From: Escherichia phage EJP2
Sequence record: OQ411014.1
Strand: one strand, 5' to 3'
Length of the DNA stretch: 64,000 bases
The notes under the pieces are model-generated. The model worked only from the letters and a program-made list of their open reading frames with translations, made no database searches and was not told the origin of the DNA. The translations under genes were made by a program, and so were the position numbers. Shown piece after piece: positions 1 through 37,476 of this stretch; positions within the stretch are counted from its first letter, which is position 1, and every line of letters begins with the position of its first letter.

Positions 1-57
1 GCACAGTACTGAAAAAGGCGTATAATGTTTTACATCGAGAGGGGGAATACTTCTCCC
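1..57 (+). promoter_or_regulatory. early promoter (5'-truncated by window; -10 TATAAT 21-26) plus leader hairpin 41-57
   Basis: Same cassette as 13 later copies; stem GGGGGAA/TTCTCCC with one G-U pair. Confidence 0.5.
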
Positions 58-78
58 TGGTACATTAAGGAATAAAAA

Positions 79-225
79 ATGAAAGCATCAAAAAAACGTA
101 ATACCAAGAAATCATCTTCAACGTTCGCAGGTGTATTCCCTTTGCGTTTTGTGGATGAAGTAGTTTCCTACCCGCCGGGTCTTACTCCTGAGATTGTAGA
201 AAGTTTGCGTAAATCTCAAAAATAG
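79..225 (+). CDS. small basic early protein (48 aa)
   Basis: ATG 79 after RBS AAGGAA; TAG 223-225; not in ORF track (<60 aa); read directly. Confidence 0.45.
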   Translation: MKASKKRNTKKSSSTFAGVFPLRFVDEVVSYPPGLTPEIVESLRKSQK

Positions 226-228
226 TAC

Positions 229-288
229 TTGCATAGTACTGAAAAAAGCGTATACTGTTTTACATAGGGGGAGAAACAACTTCCCCCA
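229..288 (+). promoter_or_regulatory. early promoter + leader hairpin
   Basis: -35 TTGCAT 229-234, 16-nt spacer, -10 TATACT 251-256; hairpin GGGGGAG..CTTCCCCC ~266-288. Confidence 0.6.
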
Positions 289-309
289 CTAATTAAGAGA
301 GAAATAAAA

Positions 310-603
310 ATGGCTAAGTATTGCAGAGAGTGCGGCGGTTTGTGTGTAGTTGATGTTTTCGGTATTTCTAACCACATTTACGAAAACGGCGAAATCCATT
401 ACGTGTTAGACGGTGATCATGTAGCTATTCCTGAGCATGAAGAAGTGTTGACAAATGAGGAAGTTTATGATTTTTGTTATGATTATTACACTGATCACGG
501 AGAGTACCCTATGGAGTGCGAATTGTCAAACGGTTATGTACTTTCTTTCGATGAAATCATGAAAGAACTAACCGAAGACCAAAAGAAAGAAATCGAAAAA
601 TAG
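310..603 (+). CDS. hypothetical early protein, Cys-containing (97 aa)
   Basis: ORF track; RBS AAGAGAGA upstream; promoter cassette upstream. Confidence 0.65.
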   Translation: MAKYCRECGGLCVVDVFGISNHIYENGEIHYVLDGDHVAIPEHEEVLTNEEVYDFCYDYYTDHGEYPMECELSNGYVLSFDEIMKELTEDQKKEIEK

Positions 604-606
604 TAC

Positions 607-669
607 TTGCATAGTACTGAAAAAAGCGTATACTGTTTTACATAGGGCGGGGGAATAGTTCTCCCGCCT
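607..669 (+). promoter_or_regulatory. early promoter + leader hairpin
   Basis: -35 TTGCAT 607-612, -10 TATACT 629-634; hairpin GGCGGGGGAA..TTCTCCCGCC. Confidence 0.6.
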
Positions 670-689
670 GGTTAAGAGGAAGTAAAAAA

Positions 690-947
690 ATGGAACAACA
701 TACTCAATATCGTTTTAATGAATACGCGTTCTCTTATGTTGAAGATCATAAAGAACTGCCTGTTAATACTCCTACCCGTGGTAAAGTATATCGCGGTTAT
801 TCCTGGAATCATAGCAAAGATGGTTACACTCATCAAGTAACCGCAATGTACATAGGGGATGGCAACTGGATCAATCCTGATAATCCTGAGTCAATCCAGG
901 ACGTGGAAGCAATGCAATGGTGCGATTATATTGAATGCGTACACTAA
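690..947 (+). CDS. hypothetical early protein (85 aa)
   Basis: ORF track; RBS AAGAGGAAG; promoter cassette upstream. Confidence 0.65.
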   Translation: MEQHTQYRFNEYAFSYVEDHKELPVNTPTRGKVYRGYSWNHSKDGYTHQVTAMYIGDGNWINPDNPESIQDVEAMQWCDYIECVH

Positions 948-956
948 AAAATTAGT

Positions 957-1017
957 TTGACAGTACTGAATAATAGCGTATAATGTTTTACATAGAGAGC
1001 GGGAATAGTTCCCGCCT
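957..1017 (+). promoter_or_regulatory. early promoter + leader hairpin
   Basis: -35 TTGACA 957-962, -10 TATAAT 979-984; hairpin GAGCGGGAA..TTCCCGCCTC. Confidence 0.6.
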
Positions 1018-1037
1018 CATATTAAGGAATTAAAAAA

Positions 1038-1295
1038 ATGAAAGTACAAATTAATGCAACCTCCTGGGTATTACGTCGTGATTCCGAACTGGTACAAGAT
1101 ACTCCTACTACCCGCCGCTTTTTCGATGATCATGGTGTTGTGTATGAGCAAAATAAAGATCAATTAGAATATCATGAATCTATGGCAGTGGTTGATATTC
1201 CTTGCGAGACTGTACAGGATATTCAACAGTACTGCAAGAAGTACAACGCAAAAATTGAAATCCAAAATGAAACGGCATTGATTAGTTTTTTCTAA
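1038..1295 (+). CDS. hypothetical early protein (85 aa)
   Basis: ORF track; RBS TAAGGAAT; promoter upstream. Confidence 0.65.
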   Translation: MKVQINATSWVLRRDSELVQDTPTTRRFFDDHGVVYEQNKDQLEYHESMAVVDIPCETVQDIQQYCKKYNAKIEIQNETALISFF

Positions 1296-1305
1296 TAAAA
1301 AGTAC

Positions 1306-1367
1306 TTGCAATTAGTTTCCAATAGCGTATAATGTTTTATATCGAGAGCGGGAATGGTTCCCGCCTC
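1306..1367 (+). promoter_or_regulatory. early promoter + leader hairpin
   Basis: -35 TTGCAA 1306-1311, -10 TATAAT 1328-1333; hairpin GAGCGGGAA..TTCCCGCCTC. Confidence 0.6.
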
Positions 1368-1386
1368 ATATTAAGGAATTAAAATC

Positions 1387-1743
1387 ATGACTATCTCTAT
1401 CGCTCAATCCAACTTTGAAAACGAAATCATCTCTACCGCCCTGCGTATGGATGACGGCATTGCTCGTATCAATTATGGTTTCAATTCAGGCGGTAATGAA
1501 GCGTATCAGTACTTTACAACTGCTGATGGCGGTGTCCTGGGTATCAATACCGTAATCGTTAATATTCAAAACATCAACTTCAATGATCCAGATGATAGCC
1601 AGTACTACATCACTGGCGTAGAAGTGAACTATGAAGATGATTCATTAACTGATGATCACACTGGCGAGACGTTAGAGAGTGCATACGCAGAAGAAGAAGA
1701 CGACGACCGCCAGGACTACTTCCCGAACGGTTTACAAGATTAA
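1387..1743 (+). CDS. hypothetical early protein, acidic C-terminus (118 aa)
   Basis: ORF track; RBS TAAGGAAT; promoter upstream. Confidence 0.65.
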   Translation: MTISIAQSNFENEIISTALRMDDGIARINYGFNSGGNEAYQYFTTADGGVLGINTVIVNIQNINFNDPDDSQYYITGVEVNYEDDSLTDDHTGETLESAYAEEEDDDRQDYFPNGLQD

Positions 1744-1748
1744 CATAG

Positions 1749-1774
1749 TGGGGGCAATAGCTCCCATTTTTTTA
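1749..1774 (+). terminator. rho-independent terminator
   Basis: Hairpin TGGGGGC..GCTCCCA followed by T7 tract. Confidence 0.55.
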
Positions 1775-1918
1775 TTCTCGTAGTACTGAATTATAGATAC
1801 AATCCCGCACCCTATGGGTTAGAGACTTTCTCGTCTTGATGTAGTAATTATACAGTACTGTAATACTATGTCAAGCGTTTAAAGTACATTTATTTTAAAA
1901 AGTATTTGTAGAAAGTAC

Positions 1919-1946
1919 TTGCACAGTACTGATAAAAGCGTATAAT
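1919..1946 (+). promoter_or_regulatory. early promoter
   Basis: -35 TTGCAC 1919-1924, -10 TATAAT 1941-1946; unusually long (~85 nt) leader before ATG 2050. Confidence 0.55.
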
Positions 1947-2049
1947 GTATTACATCAAGACGGGGAAGACAAGTAGACATCCTGTAAGTCGTACGAAAAC
2001 CAGGACACGGATTGATAAACCTAACTACTTTAATATAAGGAATACTATC

Positions 2050-2646
2050 ATGGCTAAAAATATTGTTACTCTGAAATCTGCTTTAGAATCTCATAACATC
2101 GAATCACTCGCGGCAAAACTCGCTGATATGGCTGACCGTGACGGGATCAAAAAGATGGGCTTAACGTTTTCCCTGGCTGTTAAACGTGCTCAAGATATTA
2201 GTAAGGAGCGTGCAGTACTGCAAGCCAAATTGAAAGAAGAAGCAGCAGAACGCCGCCGTCAATCTCTTATCAGTACTGTAGCAGCACGAAACGAAGCTCG
2301 CACCGCTGAGATGGAAAAGGAACTGCAAGCCCGTAAAGAAGAAGCTGAGGCGATGATCCAGAATATGATTGAGACTATGGGCTTTGATCTTGAAGTCGCC
2401 CAGGAGATGGTAAACGTCGCTATGCAGAAGAAATATAATGACAACAGCAAATCATTTACTTTCAACCGTACAGCAGTTCACTTCAACGGCAAAACATATA
2501 ACATGGGCGTAACTGGTAACATGCCGGACGTTCTCAAAGAAGCCGTAGCGAATTCTGGCCTGTCACGTGCAGACTTTATCAGAGAGTACGCCATTGATAA
2601 AGACGATGCGGAGCGTATCATTGCCCTTAAAAATGGTGTGAACTGA
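2050..2646 (+). CDS. hypothetical protein, predicted coiled-coil (198 aa)
   Basis: Internal ATG 2050 with RBS AAGGAAT preferred; listed ORF start 1945 lies inside the -10 box. Confidence 0.6.
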   Translation: MAKNIVTLKSALESHNIESLAAKLADMADRDGIKKMGLTFSLAVKRAQDISKERAVLQAKLKEEAAERRRQSLISTVAARNEARTAEMEKELQARKEEAEAMIQNMIETMGFDLEVAQEMVNVAMQKKYNDNSKSFTFNRTAVHFNGKTYNMGVTGNMPDVLKEAVANSGLSRADFIREYAIDKDDAERIIALKNGVN

Positions 2647-2846
2647 TGCAAGTCCTAAGCTCAATCATCGCCCCAGGTAGTGCAAAGCGTATCACTACCA
2701 ACAAGGGATTGCATACAGTGATTCAAACCGATTGGATAGCTGTAATGATTGATTCTATCAGTACTGAATTGTATATGTATCACAGTACTGAGGGGAATAG
2801 ATTTGTAATACACAAAGGTAAAAATTATTTGGTTGATGTACTATAA
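2646..2846 (+). CDS. hypothetical protein (66 aa)
   Basis: ORF track; ATGA start/stop overlap with upstream gene. Confidence 0.45.
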   Translation: MQVLSSIIAPGSAKRITTNKGLHTVIQTDWIAVMIDSISTELYMYHSTEGNRFVIHKGKNYLVDVL

Positions 2847-2851
2847 ACTAC

Positions 2852-2911
2852 TTGCCAGTACTAAAGAATAGTGTATAATGTTTTACATAGAGCGGGGGAA
2901 CAGTTCTCCCG
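2852..2911 (+). promoter_or_regulatory. early promoter + leader hairpin
   Basis: -35 TTGCCA 2852-2857, -10 TATAAT 2874-2879; hairpin GCGGGGGAA..TTCTCCCGC. Confidence 0.55.
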
Positions 2912-2931
2912 CAGTTTAAAGGAAACAAAAC

Positions 2932-3120
2932 ATGTTACAACTGTCCGAAGTACTGGTTAAAGATCAATGGGGCAATCCTGGTAGTAATATCATTGTACGC
3001 GATAATAAAGCAACGTTTATCACTAATGAAGGGGCGTTGACACGTAGCATAAAGAATAAAGCCGTTACTATCAACAACGTTCGCTATCGTCTCGATTCTC
3101 ACCTTGTAACAGTACTGTAA
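2932..3120 (+). CDS. hypothetical early protein (62 aa)
   Basis: ORF track; RBS AAAGGAAAC. Confidence 0.6.
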   Translation: MLQLSEVLVKDQWGNPGSNIIVRDNKATFITNEGALTRSIKNKAVTINNVRYRLDSHLVTVL

Positions 3121-3131
3121 GGAGTATTACA

Positions 3132-3308
3132 ATGATTCACGTAGAATTAAGCACTATTAAAGAACTATTCTATAAACTCGGTCAGGCGGGGGAGTACCCT
3201 ACTAATGACACCGCCCGTTTGTTTAACTCCTTAGACAACTGGCAAAAAGGCGAACTATCTGAAGCCTGGAGACAAGGAAAGGAAGATCAAAAAGCACTTG
3301 CAAAGTAA
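3132..3308 (+). CDS. hypothetical small protein (58 aa)
   Basis: ATG 3132 after RBS AAGGAG; TAA 3306-3308; not in ORF track; read directly. Confidence 0.4.
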   Translation: MIHVELSTIKELFYKLGQAGEYPTNDTARLFNSLDNWQKGELSEAWRQGKEDQKALAK

Positions 3309-3362
3309 TCTGATTAATGTATAATGTTTTGCATAGGGGGAAACAACTTCCCCCACTAATTA
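3299..3362 (+). promoter_or_regulatory. early promoter + leader hairpin
   Basis: -35 TTGCAA 3299-3304, -10 TATAAT 3320-3325; hairpin GGGGGAAAC..TTCCCCC; overlaps 3' end of upstream small ORF. Confidence 0.55.
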
Positions 3363-3373
3363 AGGAATAAAAA

Positions 3374-3661
3374 ATGAAAGCTCAAGCCAAATACTTTGAA
3401 AACGTTTTTGATGGTCGTGATGCAGAATGTACCCGCCTGATCGCTGGTGGACTGGTTAAAGGTGCGGTAGTACTGGCAACGGACTTAAACAAAGTAAACA
3501 AGAATAATCCATTCCGTGAATTGTGTAAAGAGATGGAAACGATCACAGTACTGGAATCTCCTTTCAACGATAAGCGTACTGGTATTCCGTCAATGGTCGT
3601 GTACCATAAAGAAACTAATCAACAACGTTTGGTTAGTGCCAGGAACTGGATTGCAATGTAA
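3374..3661 (+). CDS. hypothetical early protein (95 aa)
   Basis: ORF track; RBS TAAGGAAT. Confidence 0.65.
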   Translation: MKAQAKYFENVFDGRDAECTRLIAGGLVKGAVVLATDLNKVNKNNPFRELCKEMETITVLESPFNDKRTGIPSMVVYHKETNQQRLVSARNWIAM

Positions 3662-3668
3662 AAAAGTA

Positions 3669-3730
3669 CTTGCATTGTAATCTGATTAATGTATAATGTT
3701 TTGCATAGGGGGAAACATCTTCCCCCACTA
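3669..3730 (+). promoter_or_regulatory. early promoter + leader hairpin
   Basis: -35 TTGCAT 3669-3674, -10 TATAAT 3691-3696; hairpin GGGGGAAAC..TTCCCCC. Confidence 0.6.
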
Positions 3731-3745
3731 ATTAAGGAAAGTAAA

Positions 3746-3904
3746 ATGAATAATTCAGCACAGTATCAACCAACGGAAAACATCGTAATCGGTAACGGCC
3801 TGGGTATGCATCGATTCAGTACTAACCAATCATACACTGAAAGAGCATTACGGGCTATGTGTATCAGTGCAAAACAGATTGCAATGTACTTCAAAAAGAA
3901 ATAA
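3746..3904 (+). CDS. hypothetical small protein (52 aa)
   Basis: Internal ATG 3746 after RBS TAAGGAAAG; listed ORF start 3689 lies inside the promoter. Confidence 0.5.
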   Translation: MNNSAQYQPTENIVIGNGLGMHRFSTNQSYTERALRAMCISAKQIAMYFKKK

Positions 3905-3950
3905 GAAAATAGGGGTTGACTTAGGTTAGCCCCTTTGGTATTATGTATTC

Positions 3951-4045
3951 ATTGAAACAACATAGCCCACAGGGTGCAGAGAAGTAAGTGTTTAATAATT
4001 AATTTCCGTGAGTAACTATCTGTCCAGCCAGGGGTGAACTATTTT
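3951..4045 (+). ncRNA. candidate small RNA, copy 1 of a paralogous pair (promoter -35 TTGACT 3916-3921, -10 TATTAT 3939-3944)
   Basis: No ORF; 33-nt block GAAACAACATAGCCCACAGGGTGCAGAGAAGTA and CGTGAGTAACTATCTG shared with copy at 7482-7590. Confidence 0.35.
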
Positions 4046-4125
4046 ATAATTACTATTGACATAATCAAATCAGTACTGTAATCTATACATATATTAACGC
4101 AATACCTAACCTAAAGGGCAAGACC

Positions 4126-4269
4126 ATGAACAATGAGAACGTATACAACAAAGTGCAATCTAAAATCAATTCTGAGCTAACCATCGCCCAACTTGACTTG
4201 ATTGACGAAATGTTATTCTCAAACCGTTCTTTGAAAGATATCATCAAAGCAGTAAAGGCGGCAGCATGA
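4126..4269 (+). CDS. hypothetical small protein (47 aa)
   Basis: ATG 4126, TGA 4267-4269, ATGA overlap with next gene; read directly. Confidence 0.4.
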   Translation: MNNENVYNKVQSKINSELTIAQLDLIDEMLFSNRSLKDIIKAVKAAA

Positions 4270-4583
4270 AAAAGTTATTACTGTCTTTATTACTGGTTAG
4301 TACTTCCTCGATGGCTGAGAATAACATTACTAAAGCTCTCAAGGAAGATCCCTGGCCTGTTTACAAGTGCACTCTGTTAGTAAATGATAAGGAAGTACTG
4401 ACCACTACTAACAAGGAAGAATATAAATCCTATTCAATGCACCCGCGAAACATGCACGTTTATACTTATCCCATCAGTGAAGCGGCGGCCTTTCGCCTGG
4501 TGGTGTCAGATAATCAAGCCACTGGCATCATGTATCACAACAACGAGATAGTAAGCACATATAGCGGAACGTGCACTAAGTAA
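4266..4583 (+). CDS. putative secreted protein with N-terminal signal peptide (105 aa)
   Basis: N-terminus MKKLLLSLLLVSTSSMA is signal-peptide-like; ORF track. Confidence 0.6.
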   Translation: MKKLLLSLLLVSTSSMAENNITKALKEDPWPVYKCTLLVNDKEVLTTTNKEEYKSYSMHPRNMHVYTYPISEAAAFRLVVSDNQATGIMYHNNEIVSTYSGTCTK

Positions 4584-4588
4584 ATGTA

Positions 4589-4614
4589 AAGCCTCCAATG
4601 TTGGGGGCTTTTTT
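4589..4614 (+). terminator. rho-independent terminator
   Basis: Hairpin AAGCCTCCAA..TTGGGGGCTT followed by TTTTTT. Confidence 0.65.
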
Positions 4615-4666
4615 GTATGTATATCAGTACTATAAAAGTATTTTTAAAATACTTTGCAAAAAGTAC

Positions 4667-4730
4667 TTGCACTGTACTGATAAAAGCGTATAATGTTTTA
4701 CATCGAGAGGGGGAAACGGTTCAACCTCAG
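4667..4730 (+). promoter_or_regulatory. early promoter + leader hairpin
   Basis: -35 TTGCAC 4667-4672, -10 TATAAT 4689-4694; imperfect leader hairpin. Confidence 0.55.
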
Positions 4731-4747
4731 AAATTAAGGAAAACAAC

Positions 4748-4858
4748 ATGAAAGCTCAAGCGACCCTGAATAGTACTATCAAAGCTAACAAAATCAATCG
4801 TCTTTACCTTGGTCTGGCTGTTGTCCTGGTAATCGCATTAAGCCTGAATATCGGTTAA
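4748..4858 (+). CDS. small hydrophobic peptide, predicted single TM helix (36 aa)
   Basis: ATG 4748 after RBS TAAGGAAA; TAA 4856-4858; read directly. Confidence 0.35.
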   Translation: MKAQATLNSTIKANKINRLYLGLAVVLVIALSLNIG

Positions 4859-4879
4859 TAAAAAACTTTCGCAGTACTG

Positions 4880-4907
4880 TTGACAACCTCTCCAGTACTG
4901 CTATAAT
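4880..4907 (+). promoter_or_regulatory. sigma70-like promoter
   Basis: -35 TTGACA 4880-4885, 16-nt spacer, -10 TATAAT 4902-4907. Confidence 0.55.
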
Positions 4908-4943
4908 AAATGTACTTTCAAAACATATTAAGGAATTAAAATC

Positions 4944-5276
4944 ATGACTACTTCTAACATCGAAATCATCAACACCGTAGCAATCGAAACTGTTCTGTCC
5001 TTTGATGTTCAAGCAAAACGCTGGACCGATACTTATGGCAATACTTACTTCTCTGTTGTAGTATCGGCAGAACAAGAAAAAGAATATGTAGAACTTGGTG
5101 CGGTTAGTTTCGCGTACGGTTACGATGAAGCATACGCCTACAAAGCAGTTGAAATCATCAAGGAAACCGTAACAGGTATTACATCAGAAGAGTCATCCCT
5201 GTGGCGTTTAATGGATGACCTTAAGTTATCTTGTAACACTAAAGCGACTAATGTCAAGCGTAAAAAAGATTTGTAA
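4944..5276 (+). CDS. hypothetical protein (110 aa)
   Basis: ORF track; RBS TAAGGAAT. Confidence 0.65.
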   Translation: MTTSNIEIINTVAIETVLSFDVQAKRWTDTYGNTYFSVVVSAEQEKEYVELGAVSFAYGYDEAYAYKAVEIIKETVTGITSEESSLWRLMDDLKLSCNTKATNVKRKKDL

Positions 5277-5357
5277 TTGACTTGATTTATTGTGCTGGTG
5301 GTCCTATACTATCAGCACGCATTAAAACTAATTAAACAAACCGAAGGATATACCCAG

Positions 5358-5654
5358 ATGATCAAATATTTCAATACTCGTACCGAAGCCCGTGCTTTTG
5401 CTGCTGCTAACAACACCAAGGTAATTGATAACACCACCGCAGCGGAAAAGGGTAAACGCTGGGAAGTCCAAGTGATGGACGCGATGGACAAGGTAAACGA
5501 AGTACTAGAAATGGTTCAAGAAGAAGTCCCAGACCTCAAACCATTACCAGTACTGAAAGCTCCTGCGGTCATCGTACGCAACCATAAAGAGTACAAGAAA
5601 GATCGCAAAGGTAACACCGTCACAGTATACAGCAAACGTAAACAAGTACTATAA
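5358..5654 (+). CDS. hypothetical protein (98 aa)
   Basis: Internal ATG 5358 with RBS GAAGGA preferred over listed start 5292. Confidence 0.5.
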   Translation: MIKYFNTRTEARAFAAANNTKVIDNTTAAEKGKRWEVQVMDAMDKVNEVLEMVQEEVPDLKPLPVLKAPAVIVRNHKEYKKDRKGNTVTVYSKRKQVL

Positions 5655-5700
5655 CGAAAACTGGGGGGAGGATATCCCCCACTATTAAAGGAATGTAATC

Positions 5701-5940
5701 ATGGCAGCTAAAAAACCATTAGTGTATCATTCAGTTATTATTAATAACAAACGTTACAAAATGTCCGAAGGTCTAGCACAGGTAACTAATGTTCAATTGA
5801 TCTTGGACAAGTTAACCCCAGAAGAGGCCCAGATGACGGTAATACAAGCTAAGAAGATGCGTCCAGGGTATTCAAATCATCCAGTTATATCCATGCTGTT
5901 AAACCTTATCATAGTTGGAGCAAGTAAGAAGATATGCTAA
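5701..5940 (+). CDS. hypothetical protein (79 aa)
   Basis: ORF track; RBS AAAGGAAT; hairpin GGGGGGAGGATATCCCCCC upstream. Confidence 0.55.
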   Translation: MAAKKPLVYHSVIINNKRYKMSEGLAQVTNVQLILDKLTPEEAQMTVIQAKKMRPGYSNHPVISMLLNLIIVGASKKIC

Positions 5941-6104
5941 ACGTCTACCAGGAAACAGTAAAGACATTAAAGGGGTTGAATGCATCACGTGATGTTATCT
6001 ATTTTGTTTCACAAAACGCCTTTGAGTTGCAATCTATGCACGACACAGGAAAGACATTAGAGGAAATAGTACAGTACTGCGTAGATGAGGCTAACAAGCA
6101 TTAA
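5934..6104 (+). CDS. hypothetical small protein (56 aa)
   Basis: ATG 5934 overlapping upstream stop; TAA 6102-6104; read directly. Confidence 0.35.
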   Translation: MLNVYQETVKTLKGLNASRDVIYFVSQNAFELQSMHDTGKTLEEIVQYCVDEANKH

Positions 6105-6202
6105 AACGCTGCTGGTGGTGTGGTAGTACTATAAAGTGAATAACCTCGTTAGAGAGCGTTACAGGACGTTTTAGAGTACTATAAAAATATATCAAAAAGA
6201 TG

Positions 6203-6265
6203 TAGACATTAGAACTTAATAGCGTATAATGTTTTACATCGAGAGGGGGAATACTTCTTCCTCAG
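6203..6265 (+). promoter_or_regulatory. early promoter + leader hairpin
   Basis: -35 TAGACA 6203-6208, -10 TATAAT 6225-6230; hairpin AGGGGGAATACTTCTTCCTC. Confidence 0.5.
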
Positions 6266-6284
6266 TATTAAAAAGGTTTATAAC

Positions 6285-6512
6285 ATGACTACTCTTAACG
6301 CACTTCAAATCAGTACTGCCGCTAAAACTCTGGGCGAAATCATGCAAGCTCAATATGTTGTTACTCGTTTTAGTACTAAAGAATGCATTATGATGGTTTC
6401 TAAAGATAGCACCGCGAAACTGGTAATCGAGAATGGTATTGCGAAAGTATATTCTACGCGTGACAATACTGTGCAAAATACTGTTCAAGTACTTGTTGAC
6501 ATCGAAGCATAA
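6285..6512 (+). CDS. hypothetical early protein (75 aa)
   Basis: ORF track; promoter cassette upstream. Confidence 0.6.
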   Translation: MTTLNALQISTAAKTLGEIMQAQYVVTRFSTKECIMMVSKDSTAKLVIENGIAKVYSTRDNTVQNTVQVLVDIEA

Positions 6513-6560
6513 CAGTACTATAATCTCTTTTATCAACTACACGGAATAGGAAACATCATC

Positions 6561-7154
6561 ATGCGTTTTTACAATAAATTTTTACGTTCTCTGGATGGCC
6601 TGACTAATGACCAAATGATCCAGGCGTGCAAAGATGCAGGCTTAGAGATGGTAGGGCGTGGTTCTTCGCGTGTAGTGTATGCTATCAATGACAAGCTCGT
6701 TATTAAGATCGCATTAAACAGTGTAGGCATTACTCAGAACAAAAATGAAACAAAGATCCATTTTTGTATTAAAAACGAATTCATCGGCCTGTCAAAGTAC
6801 TTTGCACGTGTTTACCCTAACCTGGCTGACCGCAAAGATATTACATTAGTAATGGAACGAGTAGAAACCAAGTTTAAAGGCCGTATTAAGTATTCTACCG
6901 CGTTAACTGTCGTTCGCTTTTCTCCTGCCAGGGCGAAAGTATGTGATATTCATAAGGCCGCTTTAAAGCACTTACAGGCGGTTAGTACTCTGGACGAGTA
7001 TATGAATACTTGCAACGCTACCGACCTGCACGCAAAGAATATAGGCATTAACGACAAAGGACAAGTAAAGATCCTCGATTATGGTTTTAGTCCTGTACTG
7101 CGTAACAAGTATTTTCACGGTCGCATAAAAAATAAAAAAGAAGTACTTGCATAG
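6561..7154 (+). CDS. putative protein kinase-like protein (197 aa)
   Basis: Gly-rich loop GRGSSRVVY, VIKI lysine strand, catalytic-loop-like DLHAKNIGIN and DFG-like KILDYGF; by eye only. Confidence 0.5.
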   Translation: MRFYNKFLRSLDGLTNDQMIQACKDAGLEMVGRGSSRVVYAINDKLVIKIALNSVGITQNKNETKIHFCIKNEFIGLSKYFARVYPNLADRKDITLVMERVETKFKGRIKYSTALTVVRFSPARAKVCDIHKAALKHLQAVSTLDEYMNTCNATDLHAKNIGINDKGQVKILDYGFSPVLRNKYFHGRIKNKKEVLA

Positions 7155-7210
7155 TACTGAGATTCGCGTATAATGTTTTATATCGAGAGGGGGAATACTT
7201 CTCCCTCAGT
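7147..7210 (+). promoter_or_regulatory. early promoter + leader hairpin
   Basis: -35 TTGCAT 7147-7152, -10 TATAAT 7169-7174; hairpin GAGGGGGAATACTTCTCCCTC. Confidence 0.6.
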
Positions 7211-7226
7211 TAAGGAGTAAAACATT

Positions 7227-7427
7227 ATGTCTATTGCTATCGCACTGGTTGAAGTACTGAAAGAAGCTAAAGCCAACCTTATCGATGTACAGATTAAGGA
7301 ATTGCAAAATGGCTTAATCGGCTGCACTTGTAGTACTGGTTGCGGTTCTGATTATAGAGAATTCGAATCATTAGAATCATTGGTTCGTTATCTTACAATC
7401 ATAGTGGACGATTGGAAACTAATCTAA
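7227..7427 (+). CDS. hypothetical Cys-rich small protein (66 aa)
   Basis: ORF track; RBS TAAGGAGT; motif GCTCSTGCG. Confidence 0.6.
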   Translation: MSIAIALVEVLKEAKANLIDVQIKELQNGLIGCTCSTGCGSDYREFESLESLVRYLTIIVDDWKLI

Positions 7428-7481
7428 AAAAATATTAAAAAAGGAGTTGACTTCGGTTAGCTCCTTTAGTACTATATACGC

Positions 7482-7590
7482 ATCGAAACAATATAGCCCA
7501 CAGGGTGCAGAGAAGTATCTATAAGATAGTTAATAACGGTGAGTAACTATCTGCTGGTGGAAGTACTACCTGTACGCCAGGGAGTGAAAT
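7482..7590 (+). ncRNA. candidate small RNA, copy 2 of paralogous pair (promoter -35 TTGACT 7446-7451, -10 TACTAT 7470-7475)
   Basis: No ORF; shares conserved blocks with 3951-4045 (one mismatch in 33 nt). Confidence 0.35.
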
Positions 7591-7652
7591 ATATTTGCAA
7601 AACAATATCAGTACTGATATACTGCAAGCCTTAACTAATGAGGAATACTATC

Positions 7653-7925
7653 ATGGCTTATAACGATATGATGAAGGCACAACACTACAACTTAAAGCGT
7701 ACAGACAAAGCACCGAAACCACGTTGGACAATGAAAAAGAAAGCTCAGACTATCTTTGAAGAGGAAACAGTACTGCAAGCTATTGAACAAATCAAAGTAA
7801 ACAAAAAGTTAGTTCAAAAAGTATCTAATGTTATTTGTTCTACTCTCTTCAAGGACTACTCCAAGGAGTACCAGGAGAAGATCAAGAGTATTGCACAAGA
7901 AATAAGAATACAAAAACTTTATTAA
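7653..7925 (+). CDS. hypothetical basic protein (90 aa)
   Basis: ATG 7653 with RBS GAGGAA preferred over listed 7638. Confidence 0.6.
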   Translation: MAYNDMMKAQHYNLKRTDKAPKPRWTMKKKAQTIFEEETVLQAIEQIKVNKKLVQKVSNVICSTLFKDYSKEYQEKIKSIAQEIRIQKLY

Positions 7926-7930
7926 AGTAC

Positions 7931-7995
7931 TTGCATAGTACTGAAAAAAGCGTATACTGTTTTACATAGAGCGGGGGAATAGTTCTCCCGCATAG
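7931..7995 (+). promoter_or_regulatory. early promoter + leader hairpin
   Basis: -35 TTGCAT 7931-7936, -10 TATACT 7953-7958; hairpin GCGGGGGAA..TTCTCCCGC. Confidence 0.6.
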
Positions 7996-8011
7996 TTTAA
8001 GGAGTTCCACC

Positions 8012-8344
8012 ATGTCTACATCAATCGCTATCGTTAATGCTTCCATTCGTACCAATCATTCATCTGTATGTATTGGTGGCCTCGACCGTAAAGTGGAATA
8101 CTCTTTCATCATTGCCGAGACTATCAACGGTGCACGCTATATCTTAAATGATAGTGAAGCAAATCATTACTACGTTGCGAAAGATACTGGCTTTAAACGT
8201 ATCCCTGCCGATGTAGTATACGCAAAGATGAATAAGCTGGTAGACCGTATCAACGCGAAAGGTACTATAGATTTACTGTACTGGACTGAAACTACTCCGG
8301 CTTATGGTTCTCATCGTTACCTGAATCCAGGTATTAAAATGTAA
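8012..8344 (+). CDS. hypothetical early protein (110 aa)
   Basis: ORF track; RBS TAAGGAGT. Confidence 0.65.
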   Translation: MSTSIAIVNASIRTNHSSVCIGGLDRKVEYSFIIAETINGARYILNDSEANHYYVAKDTGFKRIPADVVYAKMNKLVDRINAKGTIDLLYWTETTPAYGSHRYLNPGIKM

Positions 8345-8351
8345 AAAGTAC

Positions 8352-8415
8352 TTGCATAGTACTGCGATTCAGGTATAATGTTTTACATAGAGCGGGGGAA
8401 TGGTTCTCCCGCCTA
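8352..8415 (+). promoter_or_regulatory. early promoter + leader hairpin
   Basis: -35 TTGCAT 8352-8357, -10 TATAAT 8374-8379; hairpin GCGGGGGAA..TTCTCCCGCC. Confidence 0.6.
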
Positions 8416-8433
8416 CTTTAAGGAGTACTGATT

Positions 8434-8832
8434 ATGTTCACTATCAATTCTTATGCTGATGTTCTGGTCCTGGCTAAAACTTTCGGCAACGCTGCCCTGG
8501 ATTATGCTTTACAAAATGGTACTATCCAACCGGAACAATGCCGCCTCATTGGTAGCTGTAAACGTTGGGCGGTGTCCAATACTATTGCACTGGAAAACTT
8601 CAACGATGGCAACAATGAATATTCTGTTGATGCAGTATTCGAAGCCGTTGATCTCGGCGGTATCTATAACACTAACCTGAATGATGTGCGTATCGTTCGC
8701 ACTGGGTTCGGTGCTTATGATTTATCTATCCGTGAAGCTATGGACACCGGATACATTAGCAAAGATGTACTGGCTCACATCATGCAGTTGTGTGTGGAAC
8801 GTAACGAAGCACGTACTATCTTAGGGCTGTAA
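8434..8832 (+). CDS. hypothetical early protein (132 aa)
   Basis: ORF track; RBS AAGGAGT. Confidence 0.65.
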   Translation: MFTINSYADVLVLAKTFGNAALDYALQNGTIQPEQCRLIGSCKRWAVSNTIALENFNDGNNEYSVDAVFEAVDLGGIYNTNLNDVRIVRTGFGAYDLSIREAMDTGYISKDVLAHIMQLCVERNEARTILGL

Positions 8833-15139: not shown

Positions 15140-15866
15140 AGCAAAAGTAATCCAGTACAGTCATGTTCACGCAGTGAAGTTGGCATTTGTATTGGCTGTT
15201 ACGGAGTACATATATCAGTACGGGGATTTTTCGTCAGATAGTGCATATAATGTTACGAAATATGATTATCCAGGAGCCAAAGGTGATGCATTACGATTCA
15301 GGGATGCATTTATCACATACGATTCATTGAATAATAAATCCGTATATGGTTTCAAGGCATTCATTGGAAATGACCTAAATGTCAAGAACAAGATGATAAT
15401 GTTCAAGGCGTACGTTCACAGTCCTGAAGATCCAAATGTACCAATGCGTAGTACAGCATTCAATGCACATCCAGATTGCGATTCAGTCCTGTACACACAG
15501 GATTCGATAGTATACAATTCATTATGTAATGAAATGCAAGTCCAGGGTGAAGAAATCAGTGTTCCAGTACGATTCAGTACGAAAGTTCTTGACGAGGCGA
15601 AATATTTCCAGTACAGTACATGTATGACGGATACACAAATTTACAGTGCATACATCAAGTCCTATCTTGATAAGTACGATTTGTGTAGTTTCACATGCAG
15701 ACACGAAGTACAGGATAAGTTATTTGATGTATATTTCGAGGACAATTTTGAGTTCGAGGATTACCCGTCGAAGGATGCCAGTACTGAGCAGATTGAAATG
15801 TACAATAAAGTCCTAGTGCTTTTAGATGAAGTTATTGCTTTAGGAGTTGACATACACAGGATGTGA
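15105..15866 (+). CDS. FQ-motif paralog family protein
   Basis: Motif EAKYFQYSTCM. Confidence 0.6.
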   Translation: MMHTDTAVTTDKAKVIQYSHVHAVKLAFVLAVTEYIYQYGDFSSDSAYNVTKYDYPGAKGDALRFRDAFITYDSLNNKSVYGFKAFIGNDLNVKNKMIMFKAYVHSPEDPNVPMRSTAFNAHPDCDSVLYTQDSIVYNSLCNEMQVQGEEISVPVRFSTKVLDEAKYFQYSTCMTDTQIYSAYIKSYLDKYDLCSFTCRHEVQDKLFDVYFEDNFEFEDYPSKDASTEQIEMYNKVLVLLDEVIALGVDIHRM

Positions 15867-15913
15867 TGTTATAATGCAAAAATATACCCCACGATATAAA
15901 GAGAGAATATATA

Positions 15914-16654
15914 ATGCTAAACATGCGTTCACGTAAGATTCAAAAGCACGTTCAGGTATTGATTCAGGCCCAGAACATTGCTAACATTTCAGATTTCATG
16001 CACAATACAGTACAGAAGGATGGACCAGAGGCGTTGGCTTCATATTTCGATCACAACCGAAATCAAGATCCAAGTTCATATGTACACACGAACAATGAGT
16101 CCTATTTGGATTGTACCTTTGCGTACAACCCGAATCCATCAGACACGTCAGAAGAGATCAAAGCTGATGGTGTAGAGGACGCAGTACCACAAGGTGTAGT
16201 ACCGATGGGATACACACGAGTAACCATTTTCCGCACACCAGAAGATGCGAAGTACATGCGTGATACGAATTACATTTGCATGGGTGGTAAGTTCAGTAAT
16301 CTTGTATTCAATCCGTACAATACGCAATATGAGTTCATAAATTTTCCGAAGAGCGGTAAGACACAGCAGATTCAAATGAAAGTACCGGATTTTGTTCAGT
16401 ACAGTACAGAGAAGCATTTGAACGAGCAGAGTTGGTTATTCCGTTCAATGAAAATTGATGTGCAGTTGATGATTTCGTATTTGAAGGTAGTGCAATGCAA
16501 GGGTATTGACATTGACCCGAATGATGTACAGTATTTCTTGGATTTATTTGGATTAGAATCTTGTACAGAAGAAGAAGTCCTAGCTAAAGTACAGAAGATT
16601 CGAGACGAATATGTCCCACCATCAGTACCAAAAGATTCCTCGGAATTGCCATAA
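15914..16654 (+). CDS. FQ-motif paralog family protein (divergent)
   Basis: Motif VPDFVQYSTE; RBS AAGAGAG. Confidence 0.6.
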   Translation: MLNMRSRKIQKHVQVLIQAQNIANISDFMHNTVQKDGPEALASYFDHNRNQDPSSYVHTNNESYLDCTFAYNPNPSDTSEEIKADGVEDAVPQGVVPMGYTRVTIFRTPEDAKYMRDTNYICMGGKFSNLVFNPYNTQYEFINFPKSGKTQQIQMKVPDFVQYSTEKHLNEQSWLFRSMKIDVQLMISYLKVVQCKGIDIDPNDVQYFLDLFGLESCTEEEVLAKVQKIRDEYVPPSVPKDSSELP

Positions 16655-16810
16655 TGTAATGTTATAATATAACATATATTGGCTTTTATTATGTAGTCCT
16701 GAGATCGGGGGATAGGGGTCAAAAAATTTTCCGCTCCGCAAAGTATATTAATAAGGTATAATACGCGGGGCGGCGGTGGCGGCGGCGAGATTGCGATTAG
16801 GGTGGATTTT

Positions 16811-17179
16811 ATGTTAGATCATGATTTTCGGTTGCACACACATATAGTCCAGGGTGTATATCATTTTTATTGTAACGTACATAAAGGTGATACCAGTCAT
16901 AGAAGGCACGTATATATTTCTTATCTTAATGGTGCGTTTTCGTTCATTAGTTATGAGAATTATAAGTACGGTTCTCGGACAGATCATCCTATGCAGGATT
17001 ATACAGTACTGGATGAGGGTGGGAGATTTCAGGCAGAATTAGTGCTTGATGCAAATTCTGTTCTTACATTAGATGAGATTATTTTCATTCAGAATCTAAT
17101 GAAAGAGTTCTCGGTGCGTGCACAAAATTCTGAAGAATTTGAACACGATTACTATTTCAATATAGGAATTCCATCATGA
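16811..17179 (+). CDS. FQ-motif paralog, 120-aa subfamily copy 1
   Basis: Motif EGGRFQAELV; ATG 16811 preferred over GTG 16802; GC-rich leader upstream. Confidence 0.6.
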   Translation: MLDHDFRLHTHIVQGVYHFYCNVHKGDTSHRRHVYISYLNGAFSFISYENYKYGSRTDHPMQDYTVLDEGGRFQAELVLDANSVLTLDEIIFIQNLMKEFSVRAQNSEEFEHDYYFNIGIPS

Positions 17180-17535
17180 CATATGATTTTTTCTTACATG
17201 CTTACAAAGGAAAAGGTATCTATCAGTACTATTGCAATGTCAATAAAAATGACATAAAATATAATCTGAACGAATTCATCTTTTACGTACAAGGTGTGTT
17301 TAAGTTTGTGGACTACAGTAAGGATATTCAACATGATAGAAGTGATATGTTAGATTATTCAGTACTGAATGAAGCTGAACTCTTCCAAGCAGAAGTAGCT
17401 TATAATTTGGAGTACATTCTTCCATTGCACGAAATTGCTGCTATCCAGAGAACAATAAAAGAGTTTGCCAGTACTGTAAATGTATCAGATGACACTAAAA
17501 AAGAGTACTATTTCAATATAGGAATTCCATCATGA
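17176..17535 (+). CDS. FQ-motif paralog, 120-aa subfamily copy 2
   Basis: Motif EAELFQAEVAYN; N-terminus MTYDFFLHA; ATGA overlap. Confidence 0.7.
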   Translation: MTYDFFLHAYKGKGIYQYYCNVNKNDIKYNLNEFIFYVQGVFKFVDYSKDIQHDRSDMLDYSVLNEAELFQAEVAYNLEYILPLHEIAAIQRTIKEFASTVNVSDDTKKEYYFNIGIPS

Positions 17536-17888
17536 CATATGATTTTTTCTTACACGCTCATAAACACAAAGGTTTTTATCAGTACTATTGTAATGTTCAT
17601 AAAAATGATACCATGCACAGTATGGACCATTATATCAATTACTCAGAAGGGAAGTTTCAATTTCTGGACTACGGTATTGTATCTAAACCATATCGTGATA
17701 TGATAGATTATTCAGTACTGACAGAGGCTGAACTATTCCAAGCAGAAGTAGCTTATAACAGTGAGTACATTCTTACGTTGGATGAAGTTGTTGCTATCCA
17801 GACTATAATGAAAGAATATGTCCAGAATGTACCTGATCCAGCGGAAACAAATGATCAGTACTTTTTCAATATAGGGAATCCAGAATGA
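17532..17888 (+). CDS. FQ-motif paralog, 120-aa subfamily copy 3
   Basis: Motif EAELFQAEVAYN; junction DNA identical to previous copy. Confidence 0.7.
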   Translation: MTYDFFLHAHKHKGFYQYYCNVHKNDTMHSMDHYINYSEGKFQFLDYGIVSKPYRDMIDYSVLTEAELFQAEVAYNSEYILTLDEVVAIQTIMKEYVQNVPDPAETNDQYFFNIGNPE

Positions 17889-18253
17889 CAGAGAATAGTT
17901 TTGATTTTTCATTGTTCGTATCAGTGTATGAAGAAATATATTGCAATCTCATCAAAGGTGATATTGAGCATAACAAGTCAACATTCATCAAGTACAAAAA
18001 ATCTACATCTACATCTGCATTTACATTTAGATTTGTAGATTACGATAATAATCAAAGAATGCAACCTATACAGGATTATACAGTACTGAATGAGGCTGAA
18101 AGATTTCAGGCAGCGTTGGTATATGAAGAAAAGTATCTCGTTACTATGGATGAAATGATTGCTATCCAACAAGAAATAAAAAATCACGTAAAAGAGTACG
18201 GTATGAGTTCAGTACTGGGTAAGAGATTACATTTCAATATAGATAAGGAATAA
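17885..18253 (+). CDS. FQ-motif paralog, 120-aa subfamily copy 4
   Basis: Motif EAERFQAALVY. Confidence 0.7.
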   Translation: MTENSFDFSLFVSVYEEIYCNLIKGDIEHNKSTFIKYKKSTSTSAFTFRFVDYDNNQRMQPIQDYTVLNEAERFQAALVYEEKYLVTMDEMIAIQQEIKNHVKEYGMSSVLGKRLHFNIDKE

Positions 18254-21258: not shown

Positions 21259-21287
21259 TTGACGGGTGTTGTGCTTTCGGGTACAAT
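21259..21287 (+). promoter_or_regulatory. sigma70-like promoter with palindromic spacer (operator-like)
   Basis: -35 TTGACG, 17 nt, -10 TACAAT; inverted repeat CGGGTGTTGT..ACAATACCCG spans -35 to -10. Confidence 0.5.
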
Positions 21288-21320
21288 ACCCGTTATTCGT
21301 TTATAGAGAGGAATAAAATC

Positions 21321-36736: not shown

Positions 36737-37476
36737 TTTGAGCATTCATAAAAAAATGTGATATAATTAGTACTACGGATGGTTAGCTATCCGTATTTTA
36801 AATTTGAATGACCAGTACTACATACTGGTACGTTTTAACCCTGATTCACTCGAAAATGTAGAGGACAGTTGAGTACGCATTCAAGTACGTTCAGCAGAAG
36901 AAACCCGTTAGGTGTAGGCATAGTTTGTACCTCCCACGGCAATGTGGCTGATTAAACCATGAAGAGTAATACGATGACTCATGGCTTGCTTATGGCATGA
37001 TAGACATATAAGGATCGCTCCTTACCAAAATGTATAAGGGAATCTTATAAATTTTTGTAGGACTGATTAGAGGCTTACCCTTGATCCGTCCAAAATTTGA
37101 AGATACAGTACAGTACTGTTTATGTGGTAATGTATTGATGCGTGCTAAGACCACGACCGTTGCATAGAAACGCGATAGGAAGAAACAGGGCAACCCGCTT
37201 CCGTTCTTAATAGAAATTCGTAACATAAAATGATGACACATACCAGCGTCAAACTTTGTTCTTCCCTCCCTGTGGGGGGATGAAAATGAATCTACAAAAC
37301 CTCGTCAAATAATAATAAGAAAGTACTAAATCAATTAGAACGAACGCTAGTGAGTGATAATTGATTTAGTAACAGTAACGCTTCGCTAGAAGTGTTACTC
37401 GTTGTTTAAGAATAAAATAACTTAGTGAGTTTTGGTTCTTTTGTTGTTCACTAAGTCCCTATAGAGAGAATATTAG

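Follow-up and report, generated by a model that had tools for sequence, protein, structure and literature searches.

A GGN-repeat tract in the non-coding spacer ahead of a tandem paralog array in Escherichia phage EJP2

The spacer and its tract

Escherichia phage EJP2 belongs to the Rak2-like jumbo myoviruses (PMC10213699), and its DNA ligase shares 76% identity with the ligase of the PBECO4/121Q-type Asteriusviruses. We analysed a 64,000-nt stretch of its genome (record OQ411014.1), referred to below as the window, in which nearly all genes lie on the + strand. The spacer under study separates a 246-aa gene from an array of four small tandem paralogs, the first of which is 100% identical to EJP02_039. 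The main features of this region are the following.

15847-15875, + strand: sigma-70 consensus promoter, TTGACA-17 nt-TG-n-TATAAT, 12 of 12 matches with the TG; precedes the 246-aa gene
15914-16654, + strand: 246-aa gene, member of a large paralog family with a QYST motif (ORF list and homology searches)
16655-16810, + strand: non-coding spacer of 156 nt; no start codon opens the paralog frame, and it contains a 1-nt indel polymorphism
16765-16787, + strand: G-rich simple-sequence tract GCGGGGCGGCGGTGGCGGCGGCG (composition, TRF, pattern counts and folding)
16799-16813, + strand: Shine-Dalgarno-like AGGGTGG, then the ATG of the first paralog; the start is confirmed by the paralog alignment
16811-18253, + strand: four tandem paralogs of ~120 aa, phrog_15629, with ATGA-type overlaps (ORFs and paralog alignment)

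The 246-aa gene has its sole phage-record homolog in Erwinia phage Hallingskeid, and the family search assigned it to no family. Scanning for promoters and terminators gave no terminator-like + strand site anywhere in 15800-17400. As no + strand terminator separates the strong promoter at 15847 from the spacer, transcripts are expected to read through into the spacer, and this promoter is their likely source. The tract is expected to be transcribed within the leader whichever promoter is used.

The string quoted in an earlier note on this DNA, TAAGGTATAATACGCGGGGCGGCGGTGGCGGCGGCGAG, occupies 16752-16789, 22 nt 5' of the ATG at 16811. The tract proper is 23 nt long, and a further 23 nt separate its 3' end from this ATG. 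We observed that it is the most GC-rich site of the window (25 G+C in 30 nt, compared to 21 for the runner-up 30-mer and a mean of ~11, or 37% GC). When up to three mismatches were allowed, GGCGGCGGTGGCGGCGG had a single site in the window, the tract itself, with a shuffle expectation of 0.00; the (GGN)3GG pattern, GGNGGNGGNGG, likewise occurred only in the tract, in three overlapping registers, where 0.09 occurrences were expected. TRF described 16765-16787 as a period-3 repeat of 8 copies with 80% matches. The tract is thus real and far beyond chance, and the description of a GC-rich GGC-repeat leader in an AT-rich genome is borne out: this is the only (GGN)n run of the window. As its period-3 units stand in tandem and its length varies between isolates, it qualifies as a trinucleotide microsatellite, the variation being the loss of 1 nt and not of a whole 3-nt unit. 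The further claim that it has no counterpart elsewhere in the window holds for the tract as a sequence, but not for the kind of element around it, as GC-rich stem-loops beside promoter boxes are common there (14 cassettes at 1-8450 and a hairpin at 21260-21295, both discussed below).

The frame of the first paralog is open back to 16703, with no stop after 16702, and in this frame the tract reads R-G-G-G-G-G-G-E. It could accordingly be imagined to extend the first paralog by a glycine-rich N-terminus. However, that frame holds no ATG, GTG or TTG before 16802, the alignments of the paralogs and of their Asteriusvirus homologs begin at the ATG at 16811, and a 1-nt deletion carried by five natural variants would break the frame. 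We consider the chance of a coding tract to be negligible; the tract is non-coding. A 13-codon upstream ORF with a GUG start (16776-16817), overlapping the main ATG, was also discarded, having neither a clear ribosome-binding site nor conservation.

Predicted RNA structure and promoter candidates

Within the spacer, folding and motif analyses placed the following elements.

16659-16675, no strand assigned: 17-nt palindrome ATGTTATAATATAACAT, an inverted repeat of 8 + 8 nt, 100% complementary, folding as a hairpin and containing the extended -10-like TGTTATAAT at 16660-16668 (candidate promoter P1)
16679-16722, + strand: G-U-rich hairpin using the G runs GGGGGATAGGGG (predicted fold)
16721-16730, + strand: A6T4 tract, UP-element-like if the TATAAT is a promoter (from sequence; lies inside a conserved core)
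16731-16739, + strand: 5' arm of the GC stem, CCGCTCCGC (RNA CCGCUCCGC), from folding, with an unpaired probability of ~0.00-0.02
16757-16762, + strand: TATAAT box, candidate promoter P2, inside the GC stem; best -35 TCCGCA at 16 nt, 3 of 6 matches
16775-16785, + strand: predicted two-layer RNA G-quadruplex GGTGGCGGCGG with 1-nt loops (ViennaRNA with the gquad option)

Both the MFE and the centroid folds of the spacer consisted of three hairpins, at 16659-16675, at 16679-16722 and at a GC-clamped stem. In the last of these, CCGCUCCGC at 16731-16739 is predicted to pair with GCGGGGCGG at 16765-16773, which is the first 9 nt of the tract. The tract is thereby divided into the 3' arm of the GC stem (16765-16773) and a 14-nt surplus (16774-16787). 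The predicted interior of the stem contains a UAUAUU/GGUAUA helix and encloses the TATAAT box. The GC-stem bases had an unpaired probability of at most 0.02, and the hairpin 16726-16790 was assigned -23.6 kcal/mol. The resulting 9-bp stem of G/C runs over a -10 box had a modest z of -1.77, 13 of 200 shuffles folding equally well, and showed no covariation; for the whole spacer z was -2.05. From these models, the GC stem appears to be the dominant structure of the spacer. It would presumably also form in vivo, where it may influence transcription or translation.

A closing helix AAUUUU/GAGAUU, taken from the Asteriusvirus consensus fold, was tried and rejected for EJP2: it was neutral in energy (-20.1 versus -20.5 kcal/mol), and forcing it cost 6.7 kcal/mol in the full context. 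The GC stem does not have the form of an intrinsic terminator, since it is followed by CGGUGG and not by a U run, in line with the silent terminator scan. Rfam 15 returned nothing at the gathering score in the whole window, nor at E <= 10 within 16550-16900; a search of the window with ARAGORN was likewise negative for tRNA and tmRNA.

Pairing probabilities predict that most of the AGGGTGG and ATG region is taken up in pairs with the leader and the opening codons. One predicted option for the surplus at 16774-16787 is to join the leader in pairing with these codons, which would hide the Shine-Dalgarno sequence and the AUG; the other, if quadruplex energies are allowed, is the two-layer quadruplex. 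We therefore weighed the reading that the tract acts as a 5'-leader RNA G-quadruplex controlling the translation or stability of the first-paralog mRNA. It contains six GG runs with single-base separators, and ViennaRNA put the two-layer quadruplex at 16775-16785 in all transcript models tested. Two of the four top G4Hunter windows of the stretch lie in the spacer, namely 16701-16725 (score 1.44, second highest) and the tract (1.32, fourth highest), and a natural deletion of C16774 creates a second GGGG run. However, both scores are below the usual G4Hunter cut-off of 1.5, and the canonical motif of four G3+ runs with 1-7-nt loops is absent: the tract offers one GGGG and five GG runs, which allow two layers only, for which the model energy is crude. 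Moreover, the sole GGGG run is taken by the competing 9-bp GC stem, and what the relatives have near the equivalent position is a C-rich, not a G-rich, tract. Taken together, we regard this role as improbable. The earlier suggestion of a G-rich RNA structure is upheld at the level of prediction, by a GC stem that uses nine nucleotides of the tract and by the two-layer quadruplex; these predictions are modest, with a z of only about -1.8 and no canonical three-layer quadruplex possible within the tract.

The other element singled out in the earlier note was a -10-like box. The TATAAT at 16757-16762 is indeed present, but it carries little weight, as the + strand of the window has 68 such hexamers, where ~62 are expected; as evidence for a promoter it is weak. 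The promoter scan did not call it. In fact, the spacer has no strong sigma-70 promoter with both boxes: the -35 of the TATAAT matches at 3 of 6 positions, and the alternative, TTGCCA-18-TAACAT, at 9 of 12. The latter is the -35 assignment available to P1 and is itself weak, and the extended -10 TGTTATAAT at the start of the spacer is a candidate as good as the TATAAT. We also considered the palindrome ATGTTATAATATAACAT as a repeated operator and rejected this, since it has a single further near-match, which is intragenic and consistent with chance. For the Rak2-like phage CBB, TGAAACG-type promoters and a late ATAAATA type were described (PMC5259590); we found neither near the spacer, and the late motif is absent from the whole window.

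Could the TATAAT nevertheless be an active host sigma-70 promoter, helped by the UP-like A6T4 and giving an mRNA that begins GGGCGGCGGUGG...? The tract would then be a GC-rich discriminator and initially transcribed region, making the promoter sensitive to open-complex stability and giving the mRNA a G-rich 5' end. In this respect it presumably resembles the GC-rich discriminator of stringently controlled promoters. The -10 hexamer is perfect, the A6T4 lies ~39-48 nt 5' of the expected start, and CBB was reported to have RpoD-like early promoters after UP-like elements (PMC5259590). These points are offset by the poor -35, the missing scan call and the chance-level frequency of the hexamer, whereas the other promoters of the window have clear TTGAC or TTGCA -35 boxes. 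In the Asteriusviruses, the equivalent of the TATAAT is TATATG, placed 5 nt closer to the A/T tract, and no + strand sigma-70 site was found in their homologous spacers. We therefore consider an active promoter at this box doubtful. The literature searched yielded no transcript map of EJP2, of phAPEC6 or of any other Asteriusvirus.

Homologous spacers and the origin of the tract

Comparison with other genomes and with metagenomic copies added two features.

16715-16760, + strand: core common to the EJP2 and Asteriusvirus spacers, GGGGTCAAAAAATTTTCCGCT ... TAAGGTATAATA (local alignment)
16774, + strand: polymorphic C, missing from 5 of the 20 EJP2-like metagenomic copies

When the EJP2 spacer was aligned locally with those of A4, PBECO4, 121Q, CMSTMSU and WPEC3, 46 nt at 76-78% identity were recovered, with Smith-Waterman scores of 57-60 compared to 24-27 (sd 4) for shuffles; the 121Q locus contains ggggggtcaaaaaaatttccgctgaaaaacatgctaaggtatatg. 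The shared core is made up of G runs, the A6T4 (conserved in 17/17 Asteriusvirus copies), CCGCT and TAAGGTATA, and its 21-mer is unique within the window. The homology ends at TAAGGTATAATA, exactly where the G tract starts, and the tract is therefore specific to the EJP2 lineage. In A4 and PBECO4, the spacer also lies directly 5' of the first phrog_15629 gene (homolog E = 2e-29 and 7e-15, respectively), and the genes on its other side differ among EJP2, A4 and the other Asteriusviruses. Since the upstream genes differ while the downstream family is constant, the spacer belongs with the downstream genes, like a 5' regulatory module.

Across the 33 records of the Asteriusvirus set, the whole spacer is 91-95% identical, and it contains two GC tracts. 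The first, a poly-G run, has 4-10 G and immediately precedes the shared core. The second, ~110 nt downstream, is C-rich, its variants including CCCCGCCACCG, CCCCGCCGCG, CCCCGCCCCGC and CCCCCCGCCGCCG. Seventeen genomes carried 16 distinct combinations of G run and C tract. In a 16-genome alignment, the number of haplotypes per 16-column window was 11-13 at the poly-G and 8-9 at the C tract, compared to 1-3 over most of the remaining spacer. In single-sequence folds, the G run paired with the C tract in 8/8 genomes. However, within-genome partners paired no better than partners drawn from separate genomes (mean -17.1 versus -18.3 kcal/mol, permutation p = 0.99), and the Asteriusvirus consensus fold and alignment contained 0 compensatory pairs. 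We concluded that slippage-prone, GC-rich simple tracts recur in this spacer family, and the hypervariability of the Asteriusvirus tracts fits a local origin of the tract in EJP2. In some Asteriusvirus records the spacer carries no annotation, and in others a small hypothetical ORF, such as gene 364 of 121Q. Since other isolates retain just six codons of this ORF, it is probably spurious.

Among metagenomes, 19 loci (L007-L025) were 97-100% identical to the window, and all had the tract, which is kept in 20/20 EJP2-like copies. On the point raised earlier, whether it is absent from other isolates, the outcome is divided: every EJP2-like copy has it, but in the closest genus outside the EJP2 group the homologous spacer does not. 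The C16774 deletion, by which the variant gains its second GGGG run, was the sole indel among these copies over 15900-17179. Variable sites made up 1.3% of the spacer, compared to 1.1-1.6% of the genes on either side; as the spacer varies as much as its neighbors, these copies say nothing on its constraint. A metagenome scan with the core pattern yielded three Asteriusvirus-like matches and no relative intermediate between EJP2 and the Asteriusviruses. About 25 further matches belonged to an unrelated repeat family on ORF-poor, probably eukaryotic contigs, one (L058) adjoined a reverse-transcriptase gene and one (L081) is apparently coding; all of these were judged to be chance matches of a low-complexity pattern.

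It had also been proposed that the tract is a remnant of horizontal acquisition, which would mean DNA from a GC-rich source. What speaks for this is composition alone, 25 of 30 G+C in a genome of 37% GC. Neither the tract nor the spacer had a match in 5,426 E. coli genomes or in 50,697 phage records, a search limited by low-complexity masking and by a collection apparently without EJP2. Exact tract matches in viral contigs were four in number, all of them unrelated poly-glycine coding repeats from phages of 42-72% GC. Protein-guided searches of viral contigs for the locus gave nothing, or 121Q only, and the search with the first paralog recovered its own cluster only. Furthermore, the tract is a 23-nt period-3 repeat between native AT-rich flanks, the 5' part of which is vertically conserved, and local slippage, to which the GC tracts of the relatives point, is the simpler account. 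The proposal found no support in these comparisons, and we consider it very improbable.

Slippage could, on the other hand, be the whole story: a neutral microsatellite that expanded out of the GC-rich 3' arm of a stem already in place, tolerated within a spacer and having no role of its own. The period-3 structure, the location of the sole inter-strain indel inside the tract, its absence from the homologous spacer of the sister genus, and the free variation of the relatives' GC tracts without co-adaptation are all consistent with this. The retention in every EJP2-like copy argues weakly against it, as these copies are only 1-2% diverged. The presence of GC tracts at both spacer ends in two AT-rich genera also hints at selective maintenance of pairing partners. 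A purely neutral tract is therefore a possible reading, although on balance an unlikely one.

Interpretation and comparison with known systems

The reading that we tentatively prefer, at somewhat less than an even chance, is that the tract is a lineage-specific, slippage-made GGN repeat in the structured, untranslated leader of the paralog array, with nine nucleotides serving as an arm of the GC clamp and the rest being surplus. On this account, the spacer would be a regulatory module travelling with the phrog_15629 genes, with a core common to the Asteriusvirus phages. The first nine bases of the tract, GCGGGGCGG, would pair with CCGCUCCGC in the conserved core and thus build a GC-clamped stem-loop round the TATAAT. 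The stem-loop may then structure or attenuate read-through transcripts from the promoter at 15847, and it possibly masks a weak internal promoter; such attenuation or masking would determine how strongly the array is expressed. Most likely, the 14 bases left over at 16774-16787 are a by-product of slippage; they may contribute a weak two-layer RNA quadruplex or base-pair with the region around the translation start.

If the stem-loop and the surplus do modulate expression, the locus would be a compact case of how jumbo phages insulate and tune tandem families inside very long early operons. The promoter/stem-loop cassette idea would then reach the Rak2-like group from the T4-type phages, and the hypervariable Asteriusvirus tracts would be possible natural expression variants. 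If the tract is a slippage product only, it is a mutation-prone site and a strain marker, and likely a trouble spot for sequencing and assembly in EJP2-like genomes.

A bolder extension is that the GC tracts of the whole spacer family, (GGN)n in EJP2 and poly-G and CCCCGCC... in the Asteriusviruses, form a slippage-driven expression switch for the early paralog array. Changes in tract length would alter the GC clamp or the quadruplex, and the dosage of host-takeover genes would vary within phage populations, as at a contingency locus in a lytic phage. We hold this to be a long shot. Contingency tracts are known as homopolymeric G or C runs in the promoters and leaders of Neisseria and Haemophilus. 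The EJP2 tract is like these in being a short GC-rich repeat in a regulatory region with natural length polymorphism, and differs in that a single 1-nt variant was seen. To our knowledge, no such mechanism is known in a lytic phage.

Two-quartet RNA G-quadruplexes occur in bacterial mRNA leaders. The tract has in common with them a (GGN)n sequence, 1-nt loops and a location in the 5' UTR near the ribosome-binding site. However, the quadruplex of EJP2 is a prediction, competes with a strong hairpin and is not conserved in the relatives.

The Asteriusvirus spacer of 121Q, PBECO4, A4, phAPEC6 and others is a close counterpart. It shares with EJP2 a core of the form G-run - TCAAAAAA(A)TTTYCGCT - TAAGGTATA, precedes the same gene family, and has GC-rich simple tracts that are mutation hot spots. 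Unlike the 156-nt spacer of EJP2, it is ~200-240 nt long and has a long AT-rich inner hairpin, UAAGGUA/UACCUUA. Its 3' GC tract is C-rich (CCCCGCC...), the predicted partner being the 5' poly-G run, whereas the EJP2 spacer is without the inner ~100 nt and has instead a G-rich tract, whose predicted partner is a C-rich arm lying upstream.

A further close parallel is offered by the promoter-early stem-loop cassettes (PeSLs) described in T4-type phages (Arbiol et al. 2010, PMC2839356; Comeau et al. 2014, PMC4122927). These are stem-loops of G and C runs that lie between, over or after promoter boxes, and act as promoters, attenuators and recombination linkers (PMC2839356; PMC4122927); those overlapping the -10 are among the commonest subtypes (PMC2839356). 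The window of EJP2 contains 14 copies of a ~100-nt cassette at 1-8450, all of which were found by an nhmmer profile at E <= 4e-18. Each is laid out as an A-rich stretch, GTACTTGCA, 17 nt, GCGTATAAT, a G-run/C-run hairpin and TTAAGGAG, then ATG, and the hairpins show compensatory differences between copies. At 21260-21295, a promoter TTGACG-17-TACAAT lies wholly inside a 16-bp hairpin of -23.8 kcal/mol (z = -6.7). The 14 cassettes and this hairpin match the PeSLs of T4-type phages.

The cassette profile had no match in 16655-16810, even at E <= 10, and the 21-mer of the core has no second copy in the window, so that the spacer is not a member of a dispersed repeat family. Nor does its sequence resemble the 14-copy cassette family, which excludes a role as a dispersed recombination repeat. 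It further differs from PeSLs in lacking a convincing -35, in having the C-rich arm first and the G-rich arm second, in carrying the 14-nt GGN surplus outside the stem, and in its length of 156 nt versus ~100 bp. For want of a convincing -35 and of dispersed-repeat membership, we file it as PeSL-type in its working and not as a family member.

The likenesses to PeSLs are several. The spacer lies between genes without assigned function, in a hyperplastic region of small genes, and has an AT-rich stretch upstream (A6T4, 16721-16730, conserved in the relatives). Its -10 would be overlapped by the predicted G/C-run stem-loop with G-U pairs, and a Shine-Dalgarno sequence and start codon stand at its 3' end. 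It also moves with the downstream gene across upstream contexts in A4, the other Asteriusviruses and EJP2. By analogy, the spacer would work like a PeSL-type promoter/leader stem-loop that stands outside the PeSL family itself.

GC tracts and core-like matches

The Asteriusvirus spacer upstream of the phrog_15629 genes (relatives of the ~120-aa EJP2 paralogs) was observed to carry a poly-G run (4–10 G) and a C-rich tract, at the following positions.

L001 (compared locus) 1856-1871: poly-G run
L001 about 1975-1990: C-rich tract
L027-L044: both, at equivalent positions

Taken together, the two tracts were different in 16 of the 17 Asteriusvirus genomes, and the spacer outside them was almost invariant across the 17. 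Gene 364 of phage 121Q is annotated over this spacer; several isolates retain only six codons of its reading frame, and it is probably not a real gene.

We also observed the exact 23-mer GGGGTCAAAAAATTTTCCGCTCC, located at 16715-16737 of EJP2 in the spacer core shared with Asteriusvirus, at 4028-4050 of an unrelated metagenomic contig of 32% GC (L058, Ga0265294_10038050). There the 23-mer lies ~50 nt upstream of a gene on the opposite strand, whose 459-aa reverse-transcriptase-like product contains a YSDD motif. This match is probably a coincidence: in the set of 70 metagenome matches, ~0.3 of this extended kind would be expected.

A metagenome repeat family, in which GGTCAAAAAAWTTTTCGCTCGCTCCGCTCGCGAA stands between G-run/C-run inverted repeats, has a superficial likeness to the phage core; this overlap was put down to chance, the pattern being of low complexity. 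The contigs having this repeat are ORF-poor and probably eukaryotic.

Contigs with the repeat family
L051, L054, L057, L061, L062, L065, L066, L068, L074, L076-L078
L080, L082, L083, L085, L087, L090, L095, L100, L105, L106

Junction repeat and AGTACT palindromes

An almost identical stretch of ~50 nt (tatttcaatataggaattccatcatgacatatgattttttcttaca) is common to two junctions of the paralog array.

17147-17200: paralogs 1/2
17503-17556: paralogs 2/3

Three Logan contigs with EJP2-like copies (L010, L011 and L013) stop precisely at the first-paralog stop, 17179, within this repeat. Assemblies are likely to break at this repeat, where unequal recombination inside the array is also likely.

In the whole window, 301 copies of the palindrome AGTACT and 107 of CAGTACTG were counted, where about 21 and 0.7, respectively, would be expected. 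Among the other loci examined (L001, L006 and L027-L029), the motif was also frequent in those of Asteriusvirus and of Erwinia phage Hallingskeid (13–27 per 6.4–8.2 kb). The conserved QYST protein motif may be the source of part, though not all, of this excess, for which the literature searched gave no explanation.

Structured promoters, non-coding stretches and cassettes

The promoter TTGACG-17-TACAAT at 21259-21295, in a 72-nt spacer upstream of the gene at 21321, is contained entirely in a hairpin of 16 bp (−23.8 kcal/mol; z = −6.7, with none of the shuffles folding equally well), the −35 box on one arm and the −10 box on the other. A longer non-coding element is present in two copies, both with a −35 box within a stem (GGGGTTGACTTAGGTTAGCCCC / GGAGTTGACTTCGGTTAGCTCC).

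3905-4070: first copy
7428-7600: second copy

After the stem, both have the conserved gaaacaa(c/t)atagcccacagggtgcagagaagta. Rfam gave no match to this element at the gathering score; it may encode a small RNA or be a leader. On a crude gene map, the 740-nt stretch 36737-37476, preceded by a TGTGATATAAT-type box, has no plus-strand ORF of at least 50 aa, and its sole ORF is on the minus strand (83 aa, 36990-37241). This stretch may hold a non-coding RNA or small genes.

Small genes in 1-8450 are preceded by a promoter/stem-loop cassette of ~100 nt, present in 14 copies.

Cassette copies (approximate positions)
1-5: 1-80, 219-316, 597-689, 946-1040, 1295-1395
6-10: 1908-2012, 2842-2942, 3287-3382, 3659-3756, 4655-4750
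11-14: 6192-6294, 7137-7237, 7923-8022, 8341-8441

Each copy carries AAAAAGTACTTGCA, 17 nt, GCGTATAAT and GTTTTACAT; every copy has a G-run/C-run hairpin, with compensatory differences from copy to copy, and TTAAGGAG followed by ATG. No earlier report of PeSL (promoter-early stem-loop) type cassettes in Rak2-like phages was found in the literature searched. The 14 cassettes bear a close resemblance to the PeSL cassettes known from T4-type phages.
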